DNA of 13,984 nucleotides from Candidatus Sordicultor aquaticus (GTDB lineage Bacteria; Atribacterota; Atribacteria; Atribacterales; Caldatribacteriaceae). The stretch covers positions 1 through 13,984 of the forward strand of contig JAGPEW010000005.1 in the NCBI GenBank assembly GCA_018056825.1, given 5' to 3'. Both the position numbers and the translations under genes were made by a program. Within the stretch, counting starts at the first letter, position 1. Each line of letters begins with the position of its first letter. A model generated the notes under the pieces. It was not told the origin of the DNA. It saw only the letters and a list, made by a program, of their open reading frames with translations, and ran no database searches. Below, piece by piece: positions 1,344 through 13,984 of the stretch.

Positions 1344-1583
1344 TTATCTTTTAAAAATTGAACCATCTTGGAGGCCTCGTCTTGCCGGTTTTACTCCTAT
1401 CTTCTCCGCTTTTGCCCCACACTTAGGACAAAATTTATAGTTTTGCCAAAATCTCCAGATGAAGCCACAGTGGGAACAGGCTATAGTCAGCGGTTCACCA
1501 CACTCTCGGCAATAATCGTCCCCACTACTGGCTATGGTTGCTTTACATTTAGGGCATTGAAATGCCCCGCTTTTTCCCTCCAT
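1344..1583 (-). CDS. Small double zinc-ribbon protein.
   Basis: 79 aa with two Cys4 ribbons: CPKC...CREC and CSHC...CPKC. It lies 75 bp downstream of the GvpO-like gene on the same strand. Confidence 0.65.
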   Translation of the reverse strand: MEGKSGAFQCPKCKATIASSGDDYCRECGEPLTIACSHCGFIWRFWQNYKFCPKCGAKAEKIGVKPARRGLQDGSIFKR

Positions 1584-1658
1584 TTTCCTCTTCCTTTCTT
1601 TTTTATACCTTTGTATTTCAAATATTATTTTGTTAGCCTTTCTTTATCCGTCTTCCCT

Positions 1659-1916
1659 TTATCCTTCTTCTCCAGTGTCACTGCGTTTACGCAAGCCCTT
1701 TCTTTCGTAGCTAATGAGCTCGCCATCTTCATTTAAAATAACCTCATAATTTCCTAAGAGATCCATAGCATCAGGAATAGATTTTTTTTCCACCATTTCA
1801 ATAGTAACATGCCAACCCTTTTCATCTTTAAATACTCCCGTAACTCCTGAGGGTTTTAGTTTAGAAAGTTCCATTAATTCTTTTACTGCACGTTCAATTG
1901 CCTCGTTTGCCTTCAT
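1659..1916 (-). CDS. gvpO: GvpO-like gas-vesicle protein.
   Basis: The 85-aa ORF contains GVTGVFKDEKGWHVTIEMVEKKSIPDAMDLLGNYEVILNEDGELISYERKG. This fits the GvpO pattern (DDGW.V.V.VVE...PD..D..G.YEV.LD.DGEL..Y.R). A GGGGGAG Shine-Dalgarno sits about 10 nt upstream. Confidence 0.6.
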   Translation of the reverse strand: MKANEAIERAVKELMELSKLKPSGVTGVFKDEKGWHVTIEMVEKKSIPDAMDLLGNYEVILNEDGELISYERKGLRKRSDTGEEG

Positions 1917-1968
1917 TCGGGTACCGCTCCCCCCTTCTTTTTTGGTTGGAAATTCTAATTATGTTTGA

Positions 1969-2553
1969 TTATGCTTTTATAGCTTTAATTTGTAATATAC
2001 CATTTTTATAGCTTAAATATAACTCCTGTTTAACCGGGTAGGGTAAATTTACCTCTTTATAATATTCTCGCAAGTTACCCTGAGCAGAGATAGTGAGGAC
2101 ATTACCTTTTACCTCAGTTTTAATATCTTGCTCGGCTACCCCCGGTAATTCAGCAATTATCTTTAGGTAATCCCCTTCATCGAAGATATCTATCATTACC
2201 TCTTTTTGCTGTTTTAAAGCTGAGTTTTTCGTCTTTGAAGAAGGTCTAGGATTCCCCACCGTAGTTCGAGGAGGAATAATTGTCCTTCTCCCTTCCTTGG
2301 AGTCTATTTTTTTTAAAGGAGTTACTTTTAACTGTCGGTCTACCTCTTTATTAATCACCCTTAGTCTTTCCTTAAAGGCTTCTGATTTTTCTAATTCTTT
2401 GGTAATATCTCCCAAGCCTGGAATAAACTTCCCCAGTCCGCGGACGACACTACCCGCTACTCCTTCTGCTTCCTCTTCTTTGTCTTTGGCTTCCAACTTT
2501 TTAAATTTCTCTTCTAGTTCTTTTAGCTTTTCTTTCTGGTCTTGATCTTCCAT
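1969..2553 (-). CDS. gvpH: GvpH-like protein with a C-terminal Hsp20/alpha-crystallin domain.
   Basis: The C-terminus reads IDIFDEGDYLKIIAELPGVAEQDIK...SYKNGILQIK, an alpha-crystallin-like beta-sandwich. The N-terminal half is K/E-rich. It is paralogous to the ORFs at 10400-10939 and 4180-4677. Confidence 0.6.
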   Translation of the reverse strand: MEDQDQKEKLKELEEKFKKLEAKDKEEEAEGVAGSVVRGLGKFIPGLGDITKELEKSEAFKERLRVINKEVDRQLKVTPLKKIDSKEGRRTIIPPRTTVGNPRPSSKTKNSALKQQKEVMIDIFDEGDYLKIIAELPGVAEQDIKTEVKGNVLTISAQGNLREYYKEVNLPYPVKQELYLSYKNGILQIKAIKA

Positions 2554-2578
2554 TTTATCCCTCCCCTAGGAAGTTTAA

Positions 2579-3835
2579 TTATTTACCTTTACTTCCTTTA
2601 CTTTCTTCTGCCGAGGTAGTAGGTTTATCCACAAAGCTATAAGGGGGCCAGGGCCCTGAGAAATGAACGGATAGCCCTTCCATATTATTAATTATTTCCA
2701 GCTCATTTCCCAACTCCTCAACCTTCTCTTTAGGCACCAAACAAGATAGATTCATCATCATTACCTTGTTCTTATCCACCTTCTTGGTCTTTTCCACCTT
2801 AATTTCTTCCACACATTTTTTTATTCTTCCATAAAATTCCTCAAAATATTTATCCGCCAGCTTATCCATCTCTTGTTTTGCGATATTCTCCAGCTTTTGC
2901 TTATACATATAAGCCATTCCTGGAGATTTGGAGGCCATTTCCTCTTTTATTTTTCTAATCTCCTCACTTTGTTTTGAAATTTGTTCACTTATTACTTGAG
3001 GATCGTAGGAGATCTGTATTCCATATTCCTCTTTTCCTTTAATCTTCTTTATAATTGTCTGATAACTTTCGTAATCTTCTTTTAGCCAATCCTTTACTAC
3101 CTTGGTGGAATCAGCATTATCTTTAGGCTGAATTATGGTATCAAAGCCCAGCGGAAGGATGGTATCAAATCTCTCTTTGGCTACATCGAGGACTCTTTGA
3201 TGGCTCTTTACCCACTCCTTTACCTTCTCATTATCCTCGGAGGCATAGGGCTCCAGAGGACAGTTATGAACAATAGCACATATACCTTTATAAGGGATAG
3301 TATAAACTTCACTACCCTCTATCCCTATTTTCCCTAAGCTTATTGTTTCTCCCCTATTGGCTATACCATAAAGGTATCTCCCTTCAGCTCCCCTGGAAAT
3401 TACCGGCTCTGCTTCCCTCAATTTAGCTGAACTAACTGTTTTCCTCTCTTTACTTTCACTTTTTACTGACTCGGCAGAGGGAGAAGTTTTTTTCTCAGAT
3501 TGAACCGCTGGTTCTTCTTTCTCTTTAATCTCACTTTTGTCTAACTCTTCGGGGGAGGTGAGTTTTTGGAGTTCTTCCAGAGACTTCTCTAAATTTAAAA
3601 CTTTAGCCTCTATTTTTTCTAATCTTCGAGTCAAAGAAGATTGGTCTTCTTTTTGTTCGGCTTCCTTCTTAATCTCTCCCCTTTGTAAGGCAGCTATTAA
3701 GGTCATCAAAGCGTGAAGCTCTGCCTCATCAGGTTCCTGGTTCATTACCGCCAGCATCTTTTTAATATTTAACTCATTTATCTCTTCCCCCATACTATTT
3801 AACGCTAAAGCTAAAGCTATATAGGTACATTCCAT
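2579..3835 (-). CDS. gvpL: GvpF/L-family protein with a long N-terminal extension (P1/P2-stalk-like domain plus charged linker).
   Basis: The C-terminal ~265 aa read RYLYGIANRGE...ILPLGFDTII...HFSGPWPPYSFV, which are GvpF/L hallmarks. The N-terminal ~57 aa read MECTYIALALALNSMGEEINELNIKKMLAVMNQEPDEAELHALM. A ~95-aa E/K/S-rich linker follows. Confidence 0.8.
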   Translation of the reverse strand: MECTYIALALALNSMGEEINELNIKKMLAVMNQEPDEAELHALMTLIAALQRGEIKKEAEQKEDQSSLTRRLEKIEAKVLNLEKSLEELQKLTSPEELDKSEIKEKEEPAVQSEKKTSPSAESVKSESKERKTVSSAKLREAEPVISRGAEGRYLYGIANRGETISLGKIGIEGSEVYTIPYKGICAIVHNCPLEPYASEDNEKVKEWVKSHQRVLDVAKERFDTILPLGFDTIIQPKDNADSTKVVKDWLKEDYESYQTIIKKIKGKEEYGIQISYDPQVISEQISKQSEEIRKIKEEMASKSPGMAYMYKQKLENIAKQEMDKLADKYFEEFYGRIKKCVEEIKVEKTKKVDKNKVMMMNLSCLVPKEKVEELGNELEIINNMEGLSVHFSGPWPPYSFVDKPTTSAEESKGSKGK

Positions 3836-3866: not shown

Positions 3867-4193
3867 TCAAATACCTTGCTCCTCAGCTTCCTCTTTCCAT
3901 CTCTCCGGATTTACTATCCTATCTACTACATCATCTACTATCTCATCCAAACCATCCCTTACTGCTTGCACCGAATCGGTAATCCCTTGTTCCTCTTTTA
4001 TCTCTTCAATGGCTATATCTAAATCCATTAAAGCTTCTCCCAATCTTTCCACTTCCTCTTCAGTTAAAACTCCGCTTTCCATTCTTTTAAAACCCTGAAT
4101 CCTCAAAGCATCTCTAATTATTTCCACTAAAGCCATTACCAGACCTAATAAACCGTGTTTCAGATTATCTTCATCAACATCAAGGGTAGACAT
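3867..4193 (-). CDS. gvpK: GvpK-like gas-vesicle protein.
   Basis: 108 aa containing LLGLVMALVEIIRDALRIQGFKRMESGVLTEEEVERLGEALMDLDIAIEEI. This fits the GvpK consensus (LV.LV..VVELLR....RQA.RR.E.G.L...E.ERLG..LM.LE). Confidence 0.65.
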   Translation of the reverse strand: MSTLDVDEDNLKHGLLGLVMALVEIIRDALRIQGFKRMESGVLTEEEVERLGEALMDLDIAIEEIKEEQGITDSVQAVRDGLDEIVDDVVDRIVNPERWKEEAEEQGI

Positions 4194-4677
4194 CTTTTTT
4201 CTCCTTCTTTAAGACAATTTCCAAAATACCATTTTTATAAGATTTCTTCACTATCCTTAGAGGCTGGGATAGTTTAATACTGCCCAGGTCAGCCAAAATC
4301 ACTAAACTATCCTCCTCCTCAAAGAGGTCTACTCCTCCTTTTCTGATAACCGGGATATCCTCAGTTAGCCACCAGGAGAAGAGGATCTTTTCTCCACTCA
4401 GAGGATCGATCTTCGCCTCCTCAAACTTTACCAGGGGTCGGCCTAAGATCTTCAGGGAGGTAGGATTTATCACCTCTTTTAAGCGGCTTAATACTTCATT
4501 ATGGTTTTTTGCCCCTATTAAGTTACTCAATTCTTGGATATTAGCATATCTATTCCTATAGAGAAAGATCAATATATCTCTGCTCTTTTTGTCTAAAACC
4601 TCGGCTAATTTATTTATACCCTCTTCTTTTTCTTTATCATCTATTCCTTTTCTCTCTTTATCTTTTTTCTCTTTCAT
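4180..4677 (-). CDS. Fusion of a winged-helix (wHTH) domain and a degenerate Hsp20/GvpH-like domain.
   Basis: The middle reads SRDILIFLYRNRYANIQELSNLIGAKNHNEVLSRLKEVI, which is wHTH-like. The C-terminus reads VDLFEEEDSLVILADLGSIK...SYKNGILEIVLKK, matching the C-termini of the two other Hsp20-like ORFs. Its first 14 nt overlap the gvpK start. Its stop overlaps the start of the 4674-5075 ORF (ATGA). Confidence 0.55.
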   Translation of the reverse strand: MKEKKDKERKGIDDKEKEEGINKLAEVLDKKSRDILIFLYRNRYANIQELSNLIGAKNHNEVLSRLKEVINPTSLKILGRPLVKFEEAKIDPLSGEKILFSWWLTEDIPVIRKGGVDLFEEEDSLVILADLGSIKLSQPLRIVKKSYKNGILEIVLKKEKKDVYP

Positions 4678-5075
4678 TCTTTATATCCACACCTATAGCA
4701 ACCATTTTTCTCAAACTGTTCGGTTACTAACTTGGTCCCACATTTTGGGCATTTCTGGTAATATCCCCTCTTTTTATCAATTTCCTCCAACCCGACGGAA
4801 AGACCAGAACTTTTTTTGGCCTTAGCTAACTCAATATCCTCTTCGGTCCCTTTCCAACCACAGACAAAGCATCCCTTTTCTATTAAGTCCTTTTTTATCA
4901 GCTTTTTGCCACATTGAGGACAAAAGGCATAATACTCACTTTTTTCCAATTTTTTCTTTTCTTCTTCTTGAGCCTCTTTTACATAATCTAATACTTTATC
5001 ACCAACTCCCAGAGTGGGATCGATCCCCAAAAATCCTAAATCACTAAATCTCCCCTTCTCTTTTTTTTCACTCAT
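4674..5075 (-). CDS. Double zinc-ribbon protein.
   Basis: 133 aa with two ribbons, CPQCGKK...GCFVCGW and CPKCGTK...GCYRCG. The signature matches the ribbon tails of the GvpA-like ORFs. GGAGAAGCG precedes the ATG. Confidence 0.65.
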   Translation of the reverse strand: MSEKKEKGRFSDLGFLGIDPTLGVGDKVLDYVKEAQEEEKKKLEKSEYYAFCPQCGKKLIKKDLIEKGCFVCGWKGTEEDIELAKAKKSSGLSVGLEEIDKKRGYYQKCPKCGTKLVTEQFEKNGCYRCGYKE

Positions 5076-5153: not shown

Positions 5154-6245
5154 TTAGCATACTTTATTCATTTTTCTCTTTACTCTCGGGCTTACCCACC
5201 CACAGTAAATACATCCTCTCTCCAAAAGTTCTTTAACCGGGCTCTCTTTTCCACAATGAGGGCAGGTCTCCCTTTCCCCTTCTTCCCCTTCCTTACTTTT
5301 AGATAAGAGCTGCTCCCATTCCTGCATTGCCTTTTTATTCCCTGAAAAATACTCTTCTCTCCCTTCGTGTCTTACCACCAGTTCTTCTTCTACCTTTAAT
5401 ATCCCGCCACCTTCTTTGGCCTTCTCTATTCTTACCCCTTTTATTTCTTTTAGCTCTACCTCTAAGGCAATACTTCCATCAAAGTCATACCACCAGAGGA
5501 GTCTTTGGTTAGTAAGATAAAGATAGCCAGCTTTCCAGGTCTTACTCTTGGTCCCACCAGGGGCAGGAAGCTCCATTAAGTACCACATCTTCTCCTTGCG
5601 CACTAATTCCTCATTTTCCACTAAGAATTTTGAGGCATTATCGTCTAATACTGGTGCCGGTATCTCTTCAAATGGAAGTCCCTTCTCTTTCATTTTCTCC
5701 TCTATAGCCTTTTTTACCGTAGAAGCATCGGTAGGGTGAAGTTTTTCTATTCCCCCACTTTTAAGGAAGAGATAAAGATAGTCTGTCTTTTTTTTGGCGA
5801 TATTCTCCTTCCTTTCCATAGCATAGCCTTTAATATCTTCATATCTTGTCTCAAAAAGTATCTCGGAAGGCTCTTTTCTATACAAGAAGACCCTTTGATT
5901 AGTAACATAAATATGTCCTGGTCTCCAATTATGCCATATCCCCTTAGAATGCCACTCTGAACCAAACATCTTGATGATAACTTCTTCACCTTCTCGCAAT
6001 AAATTATCCTTCCCCTTTCGCCTTATTTCATCTCGGGCCGCCATCCTTTGTGCTTCATCCCAATCTTTCCACATTCCATAATCTAACATAGTCTGCATCC
6101 CAGCCAAAGCAGTCTTTAATTTAATCCCCAACAGAGGAATCCCCGCTATATGAATAATCAGATCGGTATCCAACATTATACCTTTATCTAGAATCCGGTC
6201 TAAGAGGTCTACTAAGGTAGTTTCTGTATTACGAGTCGGTTCCAT
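5154..6245 (-). CDS. GvpA/J/M-like domain fused to two bacterial-PH/GRAM-like domains and a C-terminal zinc ribbon.
   Basis: The N-terminus reads [48 protein letters not shown], a GvpA-family core. Two repeats follow, [16 protein letters not shown]... and [18 protein letters not shown]..., each with the G.LY.TNQRL bPH/GRAM hallmark. The C-terminus is CPHCGKES...GCIYCGW. Confidence 0.75.
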   Translation of the reverse strand: [363 protein letters not shown]

Positions 6246-6249
6246 TTAC

Positions 6250-6630
6250 TTAATTTTCCTCCAAGGGCAGGGGCGAAATTAATTTTTTTTGGGCAGCTTT
6301 GGCCTTCGCACTAATCCATCCACACCAGGGGCAACCTTCATTCATCAACTCTTCAGCAGAAACCCGCTTACCACATTGGGGACACTCTTCCTTAGCTACC
6401 TTAGCCTCTTGCCAGGCAGCAGTTTCGTAATTTGTGCCACTGGGAAATTCCAGACCATATTTAGCCGCGGTCTCAAAAGAGGCCAGGGCTGCCCTTACCT
6501 TTACCCCTAAGAGCTCCACTCCCGCTACCGATACGGTAATATCTGCATTGATAACCAATCCCTTATCTAAGATACGGTCAATAACATCCACCAAAGTAGA
6601 AGAATCATCCCGCGAAGCTTCTAAAGCCAT
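6250..6630 (-). CDS. GvpA/J/M-like protein with a C-terminal zinc ribbon.
   Basis: The N-terminus reads [50 protein letters not shown]. Compare the GvpA consensus [45 protein letters not shown]. The C-terminus is [23 protein letters not shown]. It lies 4 bp from the preceding gene. Confidence 0.8.
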   Translation of the reverse strand: [126 protein letters not shown]

Positions 6631-6633
6631 CTT

Positions 6634-6870
6634 TTATTCCTCCTTTTTTCTAATAATCTTTAACCTTTCCACCAAATCTGCTTCCAACTGAGCGTAATCT
6701 GCTTCACTTATCTTACCTTCATCTAAGAGTAATTGAAGTTCCTTAAGCCTTTTCTTTACCCCCTCCTCGGTTACCAATCGCTCTTTATCTACTTCATTTA
6801 CAATCCCTTCCAGGACTTGCTTCCCTAATTGTAAGGGGGTCGATAATAAACTACGAATAATAAAAGCCAT
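6634..6870 (-). CDS. gvpG: GvpG-like gas-vesicle protein.
   Basis: 78 aa with a hydrophobic N-terminus (MAFIIRSLLSTPLQLG) and the GvpG-like C-terminus KELQLLLDEGKISEADYAQLEADLVERLKIIR. Confidence 0.6.
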   Translation of the reverse strand: MAFIIRSLLSTPLQLGKQVLEGIVNEVDKERLVTEEGVKKRLKELQLLLDEGKISEADYAQLEADLVERLKIIRKKEE

Positions 6871-7648: not shown

Positions 7649-9796
7649 TTATTCTAAACGGGTCTTTAAGGTCTCAATAGCCTCTGCAAAATGTTTCCTG
7701 GAAATTTTAAGGGAAGCACACTCACTTTTCCCTTCTTTTCCCTCCGTCTTCTTTTTAATAAATTCCCTGATCGCTGCCATAGAGGCTTCCCGGCAGATAG
7801 CTTCTATATCCGCCCCGCTTAAACCTTCTGTTTCTTCGGCTAATCTAGCAGGGCTTACTTCTTCCAGCGGTTTCTTCTTCAGGTGAACCTGAAAAATCTT
7901 TTCTCGGCTCTTTTTATCGGGGAGGGGTAAATCTAAAATCACGTCAAATCTCCCCGCTCTCAGGATAGAAGGGTCTATCAAATCCTTTCTATTAGTAGCG
8001 GCTAAGACTACTACTCCCTTCAGCTCCTCAATCCCATCGAGTTCAGTCAAAAATTGGCTAATTACCCTTTCGGTTACCTGAGAATCACCACTCATCCCCC
8101 GCTGGGGGACTAAAGAATCAATCTCATCTAAAAACAAAATAGTAGGAGCCGCTTGCTTGGCTTTAAGAAATACTTCTCTAACCCCCTTTTCTGATTCTCC
8201 GATATATTTGGACATAAGCTCTGGTCCCTTCACCGCTATAAAATTTACTTCACTTTCATTAGCTAAGGCTTTGGCTATTAAAGTCTTTCCACACCCTGGA
8301 GGTCCAGATAATAGAATCCCCTTAGGCGGCCTGGTATGGGCATAGTCAAATAAATCAGGATATTTTAAGGGCCACTCTACTGCCTCGATGAGGGTTTGTT
8401 TAATCTCCTCCAGTCCGCCTACATCCTCCCATTTTACATTAGGAACCTCCACAAAAACTTCCCTGATGGCTGAAGGCTCTACCTCTTTTAAAGCCTCTCT
8501 AAAATTTTCCATAGTTACCTCTAATTCCAAAAGTAACTTATAAGGAACTTCCTCTAATTCAAAATTAATATTGGGTAAGATGCTTCGCAAGGCGTTCATC
8601 GCTGCTTCTCGGCATAAAGCCTCTAAATCAGCCCCTACAAAACCATGAGTAATCTGAGCTATCCTCTCTAAATCTACATCTTTAGCTAAAGGCATTCCCC
8701 GGGTATGAATATGAAGAATTTCTAAGCGAGCCTTTTGGTCGGGGACCCGGATAGAAATTTCCCGATCAAACCTTCCTGGTCGGCGGAGAGCAGGGTCAAG
8801 AACATTAGGAATATTGGTAGCTCCAATGACTATCACTTCTCCTCGAGATTCTAATCCATCCATCAAAGCTAATAGTTGTGCCACCACTCTTTTTTCCACC
8901 TGCTTTTCTCCCCCCATTTCTTCCCGCTTGGGGGCAATAGCATCAATCTCGTCGATAAAGATTATAGCTGGGGCATTGGCTTCCGCTTCCTTAAATACAT
9001 TTCTTAAACGAGCTTCACTTTCTCCATAAAACTTTCCCATAATCTCGGGTCCACTTATATGGCTAAAATAAGCCTCTGTTTCCTGAGCCACCGCCCGAGC
9101 CATCAAAGTCTTTCCACATCCTGGAGGCCCATAGAGTAAAACCCCTTTAGGGGGTTCAATGCCCAATCTCTCAAAAATTTGGGGATATTTTAAAGGTAGC
9201 TCAATCATCTCTCTAACTCTCTGTATTTCCCGGTCCAACCCGCCAATATCCTCATAAGATATCCTCAATCTTTTCCCTTTTGCCTCTTTCTCCCCTTTTA
9301 ACTCAATAACCGTCCCGCTATGAATCAAAACTACTCCCTGGGGAATAGTAGAAACTACCATAAAGTCAAAACTGCGCGCCCCAAAGAGATTAGCTCTAAT
9401 CCTGTCCCCCGCGACAAGGGGTAGACCTTCTAACAGACTGCCTAAATATTTAGTATCCTCACCACCCCGCATCGATCTCATTAAGGCTAGAGGAGAGAGG
9501 ACTATTTTATCAGCTAAGCGGTATTCAGTCTTTTGAATGCTTACTTTTTCATCTAATCCAGCCTGAGCATTTTCTCTTAATAAGCCATCCATCTGAATAA
9601 TGGCTTTCCCTCTATCTTCGGGGTAGGCTGGCATCACTTTAGCTACCGTCCTTCTTTTGCCATAAACCTCTACTATATCCCCTATTTCCACACCTATTTT
9701 TTTAAAATCGGCGGGGTCTATCCTAACTATTGCCCTGCCTACATCTTTGGGTTTGGCTTCGGATATCTTTAGAGTTAATTCGGTTTCTTTAGTCAT
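7649..9796 (-). CDS. Cdc48/VAT/p97-like double-ring AAA+ ATPase (N-domain + D1 + D2).
   Basis: 715 aa. The N-terminal double-psi-barrel-like segment reads [35 protein letters not shown]. There are two Walker A motifs ([18 protein letters not shown] and [19 protein letters not shown]) and two Walker B motifs ([12 protein letters not shown] and [12 protein letters not shown]). SRH-like arginines are present. Confidence 0.9.
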
Positions 9797-9813: not shown

Positions 9814-10386
9814 CTATTTTTTATTATAAATTAAGTAGCTAATCTTAATATCCCGGGATAAATACTTATCTACCCGGTGTTCACTTCCTATAAATAAAAT
9901 TCCAGTCTCTCCTTCTCTTAAGGTCTTATTTATTCTCTGGGCGATATAATTATCTCTTCTTATGAGTAATTGCTTACCTCCTTTTTTTTGTTCCTTTTTA
10001 TCCGAAGAGGTGGCTATATCTTTAATATAGTTATACTCCTCAAGGAGTAGATCTTTGCTCTCTGTCCCTTCCAATTTAGCCCCTTTATTAATTAATTCTA
10101 AGATTATCTTATAATTTATGCTCCCTCTTTCGGCTAACTTCTGGACTATTTCTAACTCTTTACCACAAAGAGGCAATCCATCCTGGTATATTCTCACCTT
10201 CTCATAATTCAATTGTAGGCTTTCAATCTTATCCTTTATCCACTGCCAGAGCTCATTTACTAATTTAAGATGTTCTTCCCATTTTTCTTCCCCAAATTTT
10301 AAGACATACTCTTCCCTTAAATGAGTAGCCACCAACCCCATTTCTAGCTCCGTGTGAATGATGGGAATATAAATTAATCTCCTCAA
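9814..10386 (-). CDS. Hypothetical protein (cluster orphan, 190 aa).
   Basis: Intact ORF 17 bp from the Cdc48-like gene and 13 bp from the Hsp20-like gene. No motif recognised. K/E/I-rich. Confidence 0.5.
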
Positions 10387-10399
10387 TTTTTCTCCTGAC

Positions 10400-10939
10400 T
10401 CAAGCCTTCTCCAGTTTGATCTCTAATATCCCATTTTTGTAAGAGGGCTCCATGCTCTCTTTCTTTACCTTAGAAGGAAGCAATATTTCTTTAGCATATT
10501 TTCTATCCTTATTTTCGGCAGCTAATTTAAGAATATCTTCTTCCAGATTAATTTTAATATTCTCCTCAGCAATTCCCGGTAGTTCCGCAATTACTAAAAT
10601 ATGCTCCTTTTCATCGAATACATCGACTATTGGTTCCCTGACTTCCTCTATTACTGGACCTTTAGGTGTTTCTTTGATATTACCAAAAGTCTCGATTATA
10701 GGTTTATCCCCTACCAGAGTCCTTATGCTAAAACCATAAACCCCTTTAGCCTTTTCCGGTAACCCCTTAATCTCGCCAACTTTTTTAAATTCCCCGCCTT
10801 CTTTACTCACCTTATCTACTAAGTTAATCAAATCACCAATTCCTTTAAATATTCCTCCTAATCTCACTTTCCCCTTACTAAAATCAAATTCTATACCTTC
10901 TTTTTCTTGCTTATCCTCTTTTTCTGTCATTTTTCTCAC
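10400..10939 (-). CDS. gvpH: GvpH-like Hsp20/alpha-crystallin-domain protein (paralog 2).
   Basis: The C-terminus reads VDVFDEKEHILVIAELPGIAEENIK...SYKNGILEIKL. The N-terminal LGGIFKGIGDLINL parallels LGKFIPGLGDITKEL of the 1969-2553 ORF. Confidence 0.6.
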   Translation of the reverse strand: MRKMTEKEDKQEKEGIEFDFSKGKVRLGGIFKGIGDLINLVDKVSKEGGEFKKVGEIKGLPEKAKGVYGFSIRTLVGDKPIIETFGNIKETPKGPVIEEVREPIVDVFDEKEHILVIAELPGIAEENIKINLEEDILKLAAENKDRKYAKEILLPSKVKKESMEPSYKNGILEIKLEKA

Positions 10940-12124: not shown

Positions 12125-13042
12125 TTAGCAATATTTATTGATGAGAGCCTTTACTATATTTTTTACTTTAGTTTGACTAAGACTACTCCCTAAGCGGCTA
12201 CTCTCCGAAGCTAAAATATCCTGACAAATTTCTCTAAAAATTTTATTCTTAGCACTTACTGCGCCACCTAAAATTCCCAAACTTTTAGCGATCATGATAC
12301 AACCCCGAATAGTGGGTTTAAATTCACATTCTTCATAAGTGCGGAGTTCCCTAACGATATCTACAATTTTTTCTGCCTCAGCATAAGATAATTCAGATTT
12401 AGCTTGAGTAATAGCAATTTCAGTCTCTCGGTCAAAGTAATCTAAATCTATAGTAATCATCCTATCCCGCAAGGCATCCTGACTTCTATGAACCCCAGCA
12501 TATTCTTCGGGATTGCTGGTAAAAATGGCTACAAAGTTAGGATGAACTTTTAAATAATTTTCCTGTCCCCGCGCTACTGGTAAATCCATCATCTTTTCTT
12601 GTAAAATAGAAAGAAGGATATTATTGGCTTCAGGACGAGAACGGGTAAATTCATCATAGATAAGGGTAAAGCCATACTCTACGGCTACAGTCAAACGGTT
12701 ATCTACCCAACTCCTCTGTACATCTTCCTCCGCTTTCATCACCGAATGAATAAAATTATCTACTACTCTCCTGGTCCGATAACCGTGCTCTCCCCCCACT
12801 AAATCAGAGGTAGTAAATTCGTCATCTCCATGAATCATAATTACTGGTCGATTTATTAGATGGGCTATATGTAGGGCTAGAGTGGTCTTTCCGGTTCCCG
12901 TTGGTCCCCTAAAATGGACCGGAAAGCCTGCTCTAATATAGCCTAAGGTTCGCGTCGTTACCTCTTTGGTAAACTTTGTCTCCACAAAATTAGGCAGGGC
13001 GCGAGCTTTTAATACAGTTGCTATTTCGGCTGCCATAACCAT
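12125..13042 (-). CDS. gvpN: GvpN, a CbbQ/NirQ/MoxR-type single-domain AAA+ ATPase.
   Basis: 305 aa with Walker A FRGPTGTGKTTLALHIA and Walker B FTLIYDEFTRS. The overall length and pattern are typical of GvpN. Confidence 0.85.
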   Translation of the reverse strand: MVMAAEIATVLKARALPNFVETKFTKEVTTRTLGYIRAGFPVHFRGPTGTGKTTLALHIAHLINRPVIMIHGDDEFTTSDLVGGEHGYRTRRVVDNFIHSVMKAEEDVQRSWVDNRLTVAVEYGFTLIYDEFTRSRPEANNILLSILQEKMMDLPVARGQENYLKVHPNFVAIFTSNPEEYAGVHRSQDALRDRMITIDLDYFDRETEIAITQAKSELSYAEAEKIVDIVRELRTYEECEFKPTIRGCIMIAKSLGILGGAVSAKNKIFREICQDILASESSRLGSSLSQTKVKNIVKALINKYC

Positions 13043-13950: not shown

Positions 13951-13984
13951 ACTACTTACTTCACTTTTTATCCCCTGATTATAG

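Follow-up and report, generated by a model that had tools for sequence, protein, structure and literature searches.

Gas-vesicle nucleation is the main open question of vesicle assembly, and the hydrophobicity and scarcity of the seed proteins GvpJ, GvpM, GvpK and GvpL make them difficult to study. GvpJ and GvpM/GvpS are essential homologs of GvpA that are missing from the cylinder wall and present in purified bicones (PMC10903477). In Bacillus megaterium, GvpJ, GvpS and GvpK are all required for the contact between GvpA2 and GvpL and have been proposed to act as the vesicle seed (PMC11445434). For Halobacterium, the hydrophilic C-terminal half of GvpJ (amino acids, aa, 47-114) was reported to bind GvpG, GvpH, GvpL and GvpM fragments, and 56 of 66 GvpJ substitutions abolish vesicles (PMC8716928). 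Here we analyzed a GvpJ-type gene for a 126-aa protein (the target) of Candidatus Sordicultor aquaticus (Atribacterota). It lies in a window of 13,984 bp that is a complete contig (JAGPEW010000005.1) of a metagenome-assembled genome (MAG) and consists of a single gas-vesicle (gvp) gene cluster on the minus strand. The target is very probably a GvpJ ortholog with a genuine conserved domain of four cysteines (Cys4), referred to below as the ribbon.

When the target was compared with the Halobacterium plasmids by tblastn, its best match was the annotated gvpJ, with 63% identity over aa 13-69. This essential accessory protein of Halobacterium salinarum (encoded on pNRC100) also shares with the target the YGLEFPxGT motif that follows helix 2, the clade in a core-domain tree, and the position of the gene after gvpG and before gvpK-gvpL. 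However, the tail of the Halobacterium protein (aa ~70-114) is acidic, cysteine-free and without a ribbon, whereas the target tail is a conserved Cys4 ribbon. The target likewise resembles GvpA (PDB 8gbs of Anabaena and 7r1c of B. megaterium) in its alpha-beta-beta-alpha core, matching 8gbs with an E-value of 3e-12, and is 49% identical over 59 aa to canonical GvpA of the type found in this cluster. In contrast to the target, GvpA proteins are 67-76 aa long, have no extra domain, form a separate clade and are encoded by a separate gene in sister contigs. A precedent for an atypical, lineage-specific C-terminal addition of unknown function is provided by Anabaena flos-aquae GvpJ, where the addition comprises six 21-aa repeats rather than a metal-binding ribbon (PMC10903477). 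The sole Cys-rich metal motif that we found mentioned for gas-vesicle proteins is the C-terminal 'zinc-finger motif' of haloarchaeal GvpC (PMC9501494); GvpC, however, is an unrelated outer-surface stiffener for which no homology to the GvpJ ribbon is claimed.

The target open reading frame (ORF) is real and under strong purifying selection. It starts with ATG behind a GGAGG Shine-Dalgarno sequence and is separated from the gvpG stop codon by 3 nt, a spacing that suggests translational coupling; the next gene begins 4 nt past its own stop. The identical 126-aa protein, recorded at NCBI as a 'gas vesicle protein' of Candidatus Atribacteria (MBP9014951.1), was found on 16 other contigs. Four sister contigs that encode it (L001, L002, L004 and L005) share 94% identity with the window, align collinearly and are longer. 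The target gene differs from these contigs at 16 nucleotide positions, all 16 of them synonymous third-position changes (7 in the tail), and the 363-aa product of the neighboring gene shows 22 amino-acid changes in the same comparison.

The assignment to GvpJ rests on several concordant comparisons. The Pfam Gas_vesicle profile (PF00741) matches the target over all of its 39 positions (aa 12-50; E 6.7e-17, 61.8 bits against a cut-off of 25). Among the NCBIfam subfamily profiles, GvpJ (NF046090) reaches 98.8 bits, compared to 59.9 for GvpM and to 60.1 and 51.6 for GvpA. The GvpJ score misses the curated cut-off of 125 bits; because NF046090 is a haloarchaea-specific 'exception' model, this speaks to the lineage of the target and not to its subfamily. 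In a neighbor-joining tree of the core domain, a simple distance tree without support values in which the Anabaena GvpA reference was taken from the PDB match except for its last three core residues, three clades (A, J and M) were obtained; the target grouped with Halobacterium GvpJ and its 363-aa neighbor with Halobacterium GvpM. The gene order of the window (F-G-J-M'...K-L) matches that of Halobacterium pNRC100 (F-G-H-I-J-K-L-M) and recurs in many loci. Every locus carries a single J-type gene, which encodes the ribbon, and a single M-type gene; the ribbon form thus represents the GvpJ of these clusters and is no additional paralog. An earlier note on this DNA had judged the ORF about half identical to GvpA, had suggested from the cluster order that it occupies a GvpJ/S/M minor-component position, and had proposed profile alignment and a phylogeny as checks. 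The identity value agrees with that estimate, and the profiles, the tree, the Halobacterium match and the gene order all point to GvpJ. At 126 aa, with an extra domain and with lower scores for the GvpA profiles, the target does not have the features of a GvpA.

The ribbon contains the motif CPQC-x13-CPWC, which consists of two CxxC knuckles spaced by 13 residues with cysteines at C83, C86, C100 and C103 (a 23-residue stretch at aa 83-105, nt 6322-6384). A one-genome-per-species scan identified at least 343 loci encoding this protein, and genome-locus conservation and taxonomy are given here for the best 80 of them. Each of the four cysteines is retained without exception in these loci (80/80), in 120/120 protein clusters and in 69 aligned sequences. 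Also invariant are K88, L95, W102, G104 and W105 in the ribbon and W73 in the linker. Across 81 sequences, mean pairwise identity is 88% in the core (aa 12-59), 71% in both the linker and the ribbon, and 27% in the extreme tail. The earlier note had described a tail ending in CPQCG...CPWCGW; the motif is present, but the protein runs about 21 variable, lysine-rich residues further. From the sequence, the four cysteines presumably form a metal-bound site, with zinc and iron indistinguishable at this level. Generic Cys4 ribbons and rubredoxin-like knuckles (eL43, the rubrerythrin C-terminal domain and the CPCC domain 8ey3) also have two CPxCG knuckles about 13 residues apart. Similarity to them is marginal, however, and the gvp module appears as a family of its own.

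A hidden Markov model of the tail (aa 79-110), searched against 6,558 ORFs of the loci, matched only three classes of proteins: GvpJ with the ribbon (90), a GvpM-like protein fused to pleckstrin-homology (PH) domains and the ribbon (39), and a tandem-ribbon protein (29). In the window, the matches outside the target were to the 363-aa protein at aa 325-354 (E 1.5e-13) and to two sites in a 133-aa protein. The tail alone was further compared by phmmer with 1.84 billion representative proteins. Nearly all of the 62 matches at E <= 1e-3 belonged to the same three classes, and the remaining few were unrelated multi-CxxC repeat proteins. Judged by these searches, the module is essentially specific to gas-vesicle clusters and forms its own family, and no Pfam or NCBIfam model extends over it. 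The ribbon is constant on GvpJ; the GvpM ribbon and the tandem-ribbon protein are optional across loci. The sequences themselves are already public as 'gas vesicle protein'. What is new is the recognition of a conserved, gvp-specific Cys4 module common to three proteins, not a new kind of system, and our search of the open-access literature turned up no report of GvpJ or GvpM proteins with zinc ribbons or zinc fingers.

The 363-aa fusion is modeled by AlphaFold2 with a mean predicted local distance difference test score (pLDDT) of 83, with the PH domains above 90; its best PDB folds are tandem-PH structures (BBS5, centaurin, FACT Spt16/Pob3, Rtt106 and CheF). The family of GvpM-tandem-PH-ribbon proteins comprises 615 protein clusters, including those of Methanothrix soehngenii and Clostridium sp. 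ZS2-4, and no description of such a protein was found. Relatives of the tandem-ribbon protein contain two or three ribbon copies and a conserved N-terminal FDP/LGxDPxLG motif. They occur in about one third of the 30 full-flank loci, defined as those with at least 8 kb on either side of the ribbon-type gvpJ.

The ribbon-type GvpJ is the standard GvpJ of a huge family and no peculiarity of this window, a point that the earlier note had missed. When 5.8 billion protein clusters were searched, 3,977 matches were obtained, of which the best 120 are all 116-133 aa long and 73-94% identical to the target. The family spans at least 15 phyla of Bacteria and Archaea. Its bacterial hosts include Atribacterota, Dehalococcoidia and other Chloroflexota, Desulfobacterota, Nitrospirota, Omnitrophota, Bacteroidales, Bacillota, Actinomycetota, Verrucomicrobiota and Zixibacteria; its archaeal hosts include Methanophagales, Methanosarcinales, Methanotrichaceae, Methanomicrobia, Methanoregula and Thermoplasmata. 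Strict anaerobes make up the majority of hosts. However, Natronococcus occultus, Natrinema zhouii and a Streptomyces strain have plasmids that encode full-length ribbon forms (62-65% identical), so a feature restricted to anaerobes is ruled out. Bare mini-clusters of genes for ribbon-type GvpJ, GvpM-type protein, GvpK and GvpL are present on Natronococcus occultus plasmid 2 (L092, 12001-14568) and on a plasmid of Streptomyces sp. SGAir0924 (L093, 12001-14594), with no gvpA, gvpN, gvpF, gvpG or CDC48 annotated within 12 kb. The M-type gene of the Streptomyces mini-cluster has tandem PH domains, and the M-type genes of both mini-clusters are labeled 'GvpJ' at NCBI.

Across the domains of life, the two adjacent GvpA-related proteins differ in conservation. 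The ribbon-type GvpJ of the window is 72-92% identical to its counterparts in archaeal MAGs (L011, L017, L043, L052, L054, L062, L068 and L086; 92% in Methanophagales), which makes it as conserved as GvpA, whereas the GvpM fusion is merely 53-61% identical in the same MAGs. This similarity suggests extreme constraint, cross-domain transfer or both, although single MAGs could be mis-binned. A cultured gas-vacuolate methanogen, Methanothrix thermoacetophila, is reported to carry gvpG, 'gvpA' (Mthe_0070), gvpM, gvpK and gvpL as Mthe_0069-0073 (PMC10470525, Table 2). This order is the same as in the window, so Mthe_0070 may, judged by gene order, be a mis-named ribbon-type gvpJ.

On balance, we favor the explanation that the target is a GvpJ ortholog whose ribbon serves as a docking surface of the nucleation complex; the docking role, taken alone, is put forward as a tentative proposal. 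GvpJ would act as a minor GvpA-related protein that takes part in seeding and remains at the conical tips; an essential role and a location in seed or cone tips are known for the GvpJ of Halobacterium and B. megaterium only. At the seed or the tip, a GvpA-type lattice would take up the hydrophobic core of the target (aa 12-59), and the conserved linker (YGLEFPSGT...W73) would lead from the core to the small, metal-bound ribbon (aa 80-108). Judging from the arrangement of GvpA in the vesicle wall, the ribbon, some 20 residues past helix 2, may face outward into the cytoplasm. There it could offer a rigid folded surface, with GvpL, GvpK or GvpM as its most probable partners and GvpG or the Hsp20-like GvpH proteins as further possible ones. 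The ribbon would thereby replace the unstructured acidic C-terminal half that does the docking job in Halobacterium GvpJ. A functional ribbon is supported by its invariant cysteines, by its conservation relative to the extreme tail and by the purely synonymous changes in the gene. The proposed partners follow from the constant co-occurrence of GvpK, GvpL and GvpM-type genes with ribbon-type gvpJ, from the bare J-M-K-L clusters and from the contacts published for Halobacterium and B. megaterium. What the data show directly is the subfamily, the conservation of the ribbon, the sharing of the module, the gene neighborhood and, in sister contigs, a gvpA.

Several points weigh against this explanation. 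Metal binding, outward orientation and binding partners of the ribbon are inferred. The AlphaFold2 model of the target, built from an alignment of 69 sequences, is poor (mean pLDDT 53.8); within it the ribbon reaches about 73 and consists of two short strands (aa 80-82, aa 89-91) and one helix (aa 92-97), and the homologous ribbon of the 363-aa neighbor is modeled the same way at pLDDT 76-86. No Pfam zinc-ribbon family matches the tail at E <= 0.01, the PDB sequence matches are marginal (E 0.2-0.7), and the weak NCBIfam matches (9e-4 to a rubrerythrin-like family and 4e-3) are below their cut-offs. Pairing of ribbons with one another is ruled out as a general model because the ribbons of GvpM and of the tandem protein are optional. 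Finally, gvpA is known from the 94%-identical relatives and not from this contig, and identity to these relatives drops to 82% over the final 400 nt of the window.

Other functions of the ribbon were weighed against docking. Its bulk on the outer face might, with no specific partner involved, block packing into the regular cylindrical GvpA lattice, which would leave GvpJ confined to the seed or the irregular tip of the cone, or soluble until assembly. The absence of GvpJ/S from the cylinder and their presence in bicones fit such a steric cap, and the variation of GvpJ tails by lineage (acidic in Halobacterium, repeats in Anabaena) suggests that bulk may outweigh sequence. However, the non-structural surface residues W73, Q85, K88, W102 and S107 are invariant across phyla, and two other proteins carry this module as well; both facts argue for a specific interface rather than bulk alone, and we consider the steric explanation unlikely. 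Alternatively, the ribbon could be a handle by which the N-domain of a CDC48-type ATPase recognizes GvpJ, GvpM and the tandem-ribbon protein, which the ATPase would then extract, disaggregate or deliver. Proteins of the GvpA family tend to aggregate, and a CDC48 homolog is encoded in the window and in 23/30 full-flank loci. Nevertheless, none is found within 10 kb in the other 7/30 or annotated within 12 kb of the J-M-K-L mini-clusters of Streptomyces and Natronococcus, so that recognition by CDC48 seems quite unlikely.

The predominance of strict anaerobes among the hosts and the rubredoxin-like character of the CPxCG...CPxCG knuckles, along with the weak rubrerythrin-like match, would suit a redox or metal switch, as would the presence of up to four ribbon modules on three adjacent seed-side proteins. 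A reactive Cys4 metal-thiolate site (zinc, or iron as in rubredoxin) might be oxidized or demetallated under O2, oxidants or metal limitation, which would block vesicle nucleation. If this held, anaerobes floating into oxidizing water would stop making new vesicles, their buoyancy would be tied to the chemocline, and post-translational buoyancy control would be built into the vesicle nucleus. The switch is a sequence-based proposal, the ribbon is conserved in the aerobic Streptomyces, Natronococcus and Natrinema, and we regard this scenario as distinctly unlikely. Binding of nucleic acids, for example in autoregulation of gvp mRNA, is very improbable. It is hinted at by automatic names from the Joint Genome Institute ('RNA-binding Zn-ribbon', 'ribosomal protein L37AE/L43A' and 'topoisomerase Zn-ribbon'), by the lysine-rich stretch after the ribbon and by marginal eL43 matches in the PDB. 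However, these PDB matches are at chance level (E 0.25-0.7), the module is limited to structural GvpJ and GvpM fusions and one cluster protein, and the basic tail is the least conserved part. Hardly credible is the possibility that the target is itself the main shell protein of a lineage without gvpA. The window, it is true, contains no gvpA, but the gene is present in the four sister contigs and in most other full-flank loci, as detailed below, and the target groups with GvpJ, not GvpA, by profiles and tree.

The ribbon on GvpJ has practical consequences. As a strongly conserved domain, presumably folded and metal-binding, it offers a natural handle for pull-downs, labeling, and localization of seed and tips by cryo-electron tomography, and its role could be tested cleanly by genetics through Cys mutants or tail deletions of a ribbon-type GvpJ. 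The ribbon is absent from the model systems Halobacterium, Anabaena and B. megaterium but is the norm in gvp clusters of hundreds of species, most of them anaerobes, a point of relevance when clusters are mined for acoustic reporter genes. As to annotation, the tail and the proteins of the GvpM-tandem-PH-ribbon and tandem-ribbon types are without a family model and are labeled 'gas vesicle protein', 'hypothetical' or, misleadingly, 'ribosomal protein L37AE'.

Neither the ORF list nor tblastn with canonical GvpA revealed a gvpA of 67-76 aa in the window. The only GvpA-like sequences detected by tblastn were the target and the N-terminus of the 363-aa ORF, in line with the absence that the earlier note had reported. 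That note had also suggested that gvpA might lie just upstream of position 13984 or else be absent. In all four sister contigs a canonical 67-aa gvpA is located about 1.35 kb past the position that matches window base 13984, which bears out the former possibility through these relatives and not through this contig itself. Exact matches to the 131-aa and 363-aa proteins of the window, sought in order to extend this very contig, were confined to a 1.3-kb contig and to the 2.7-kb fragment L007, respectively. The sister contigs encode, in order, a sigma-54 response regulator, a single-domain response regulator, the 67-aa GvpA, a 264-aa coiled-coil protein and a 235-aa protein, followed by the genes of the window. 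The ORF at the very end of the window corresponds to the C-terminal portion of the 235-aa protein. A canonical gvpA (67-72 aa) is also found upstream in at least 17/30 other full-flank loci.

Read 5' to 3' on the minus strand, the window begins with the gene cut by the contig end and continues with a gene for a 131-aa protein of unknown function, gvpN, a gene for a 103-aa unknown protein, gvpF/L, an Hsp20-like gene, a gene for a 190-aa unknown protein, a CDC48-type AAA+ ATPase gene, a second gvpF/L, gvpG and the target gvpJ. These are followed by the genes for the 363-aa GvpM-like fusion, the 133-aa two-ribbon protein and a 165-aa Hsp20-like protein, and then by gvpK, a gvpL for a 418-aa protein, an Hsp20-like gene, gvpO, a gene for a 79-aa double zinc ribbon and a SLOG-family gene. 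The coordinates of the main features are collected in the table.

Table. Features of the gvp cluster in the 13,984-bp window
Feature	Position (nt)	Strand	Remarks
3' part of gene cut by contig end	13582..13984	(-)	Homolog of the sister-contig 235-aa protein between gvpA and gvpN
gvpN	12125..13042	(-)	TIGR02640, 355 bits
Hsp20-like gene	10400-10939	(-)	Near CDC48-type gene
Gene for 190-aa unknown protein	9814-10386	(-)	Beside CDC48-type gene
CDC48-type double AAA+ ATPase	7649..9796	(-)	Inside gvp cluster
gvpG	6634..6870	(-)	Directly upstream of gvpJ
GGAGG ribosome-binding site	6639..6643	(-)	8 nt before gvpJ ATG, within gvpG 3' end; read from sequence
gvpJ-type gene, 126 aa (target)	6250..6630	(-)	GvpA-like core, linker, Cys4 zinc ribbon (predicted) and variable basic tail
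Gas_vesicle (PF00741) core, aa 12-50	6481..6597	(-)	Pfam match
Zinc-ribbon module (predicted), aa 80-108	6307..6393	(-)	Cys4 conservation
363-aa GvpM-like fusion	5154..6245	(-)	GvpM-like core aa 1-67; PH-like aa 89-187 and 214-319; ribbon aa 325-354 (nt 5202-5264)
133-aa tandem-ribbon protein	4674..5075	(-)	Ribbons at nt 4860-4922 and 4689-4751; NCBI 'hypothetical protein KBH15_00395'
Hsp20-like gene, 165 aa	4180-4677	(-)	Weak N-terminal winged-helix signal
gvpK	3867..4193	(-)	
gvpL/F-family gene, 418 aa	2579..3835	(-)	
Hsp20-like gene	1969-2553	(-)	
79-aa double zinc ribbon	1344-1583	(-)	Pfam DZR and Zn_ribbon_3; just past gvpO

Across all gvp proteins of the window, the closest genomes are those of Atribacterota (81% identity for GvpN and 83% for CDC48). 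The three Hsp20/alpha-crystallin-like proteins of the cluster are probably GvpH analogs. The N-terminus of the tandem-ribbon protein gave no significant Pfam or GvpG-like signal, and the 103-, 131-, 165- and 190-aa proteins gave no significant Pfam signal. GvpK, GvpL and the GvpM-type protein each accompany the ribbon-type GvpJ in 30/30 full-flank loci. Strict coupling to CDC48 as a general rule is excluded by the seven loci and the mini-clusters that are devoid of it; no discussion of CDC48 in gvp clusters was found in the open-access literature. The 79-aa double zinc ribbon is of a type different from the gvp-specific ribbon, and a homolog occurs in 12/30 full-flank loci, mostly beside gvpO.

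On sister contig L001, the highly charged 264-aa coiled-coil protein and the 235-aa protein encoded between gvpA and gvpN (1491-3018) are without a family match and might be GvpC-like outer-surface proteins or regulators. The sigma-54-dependent and single-domain response regulators encoded directly upstream of gvpA on the same contig (1-952) are candidate regulators of the cluster.

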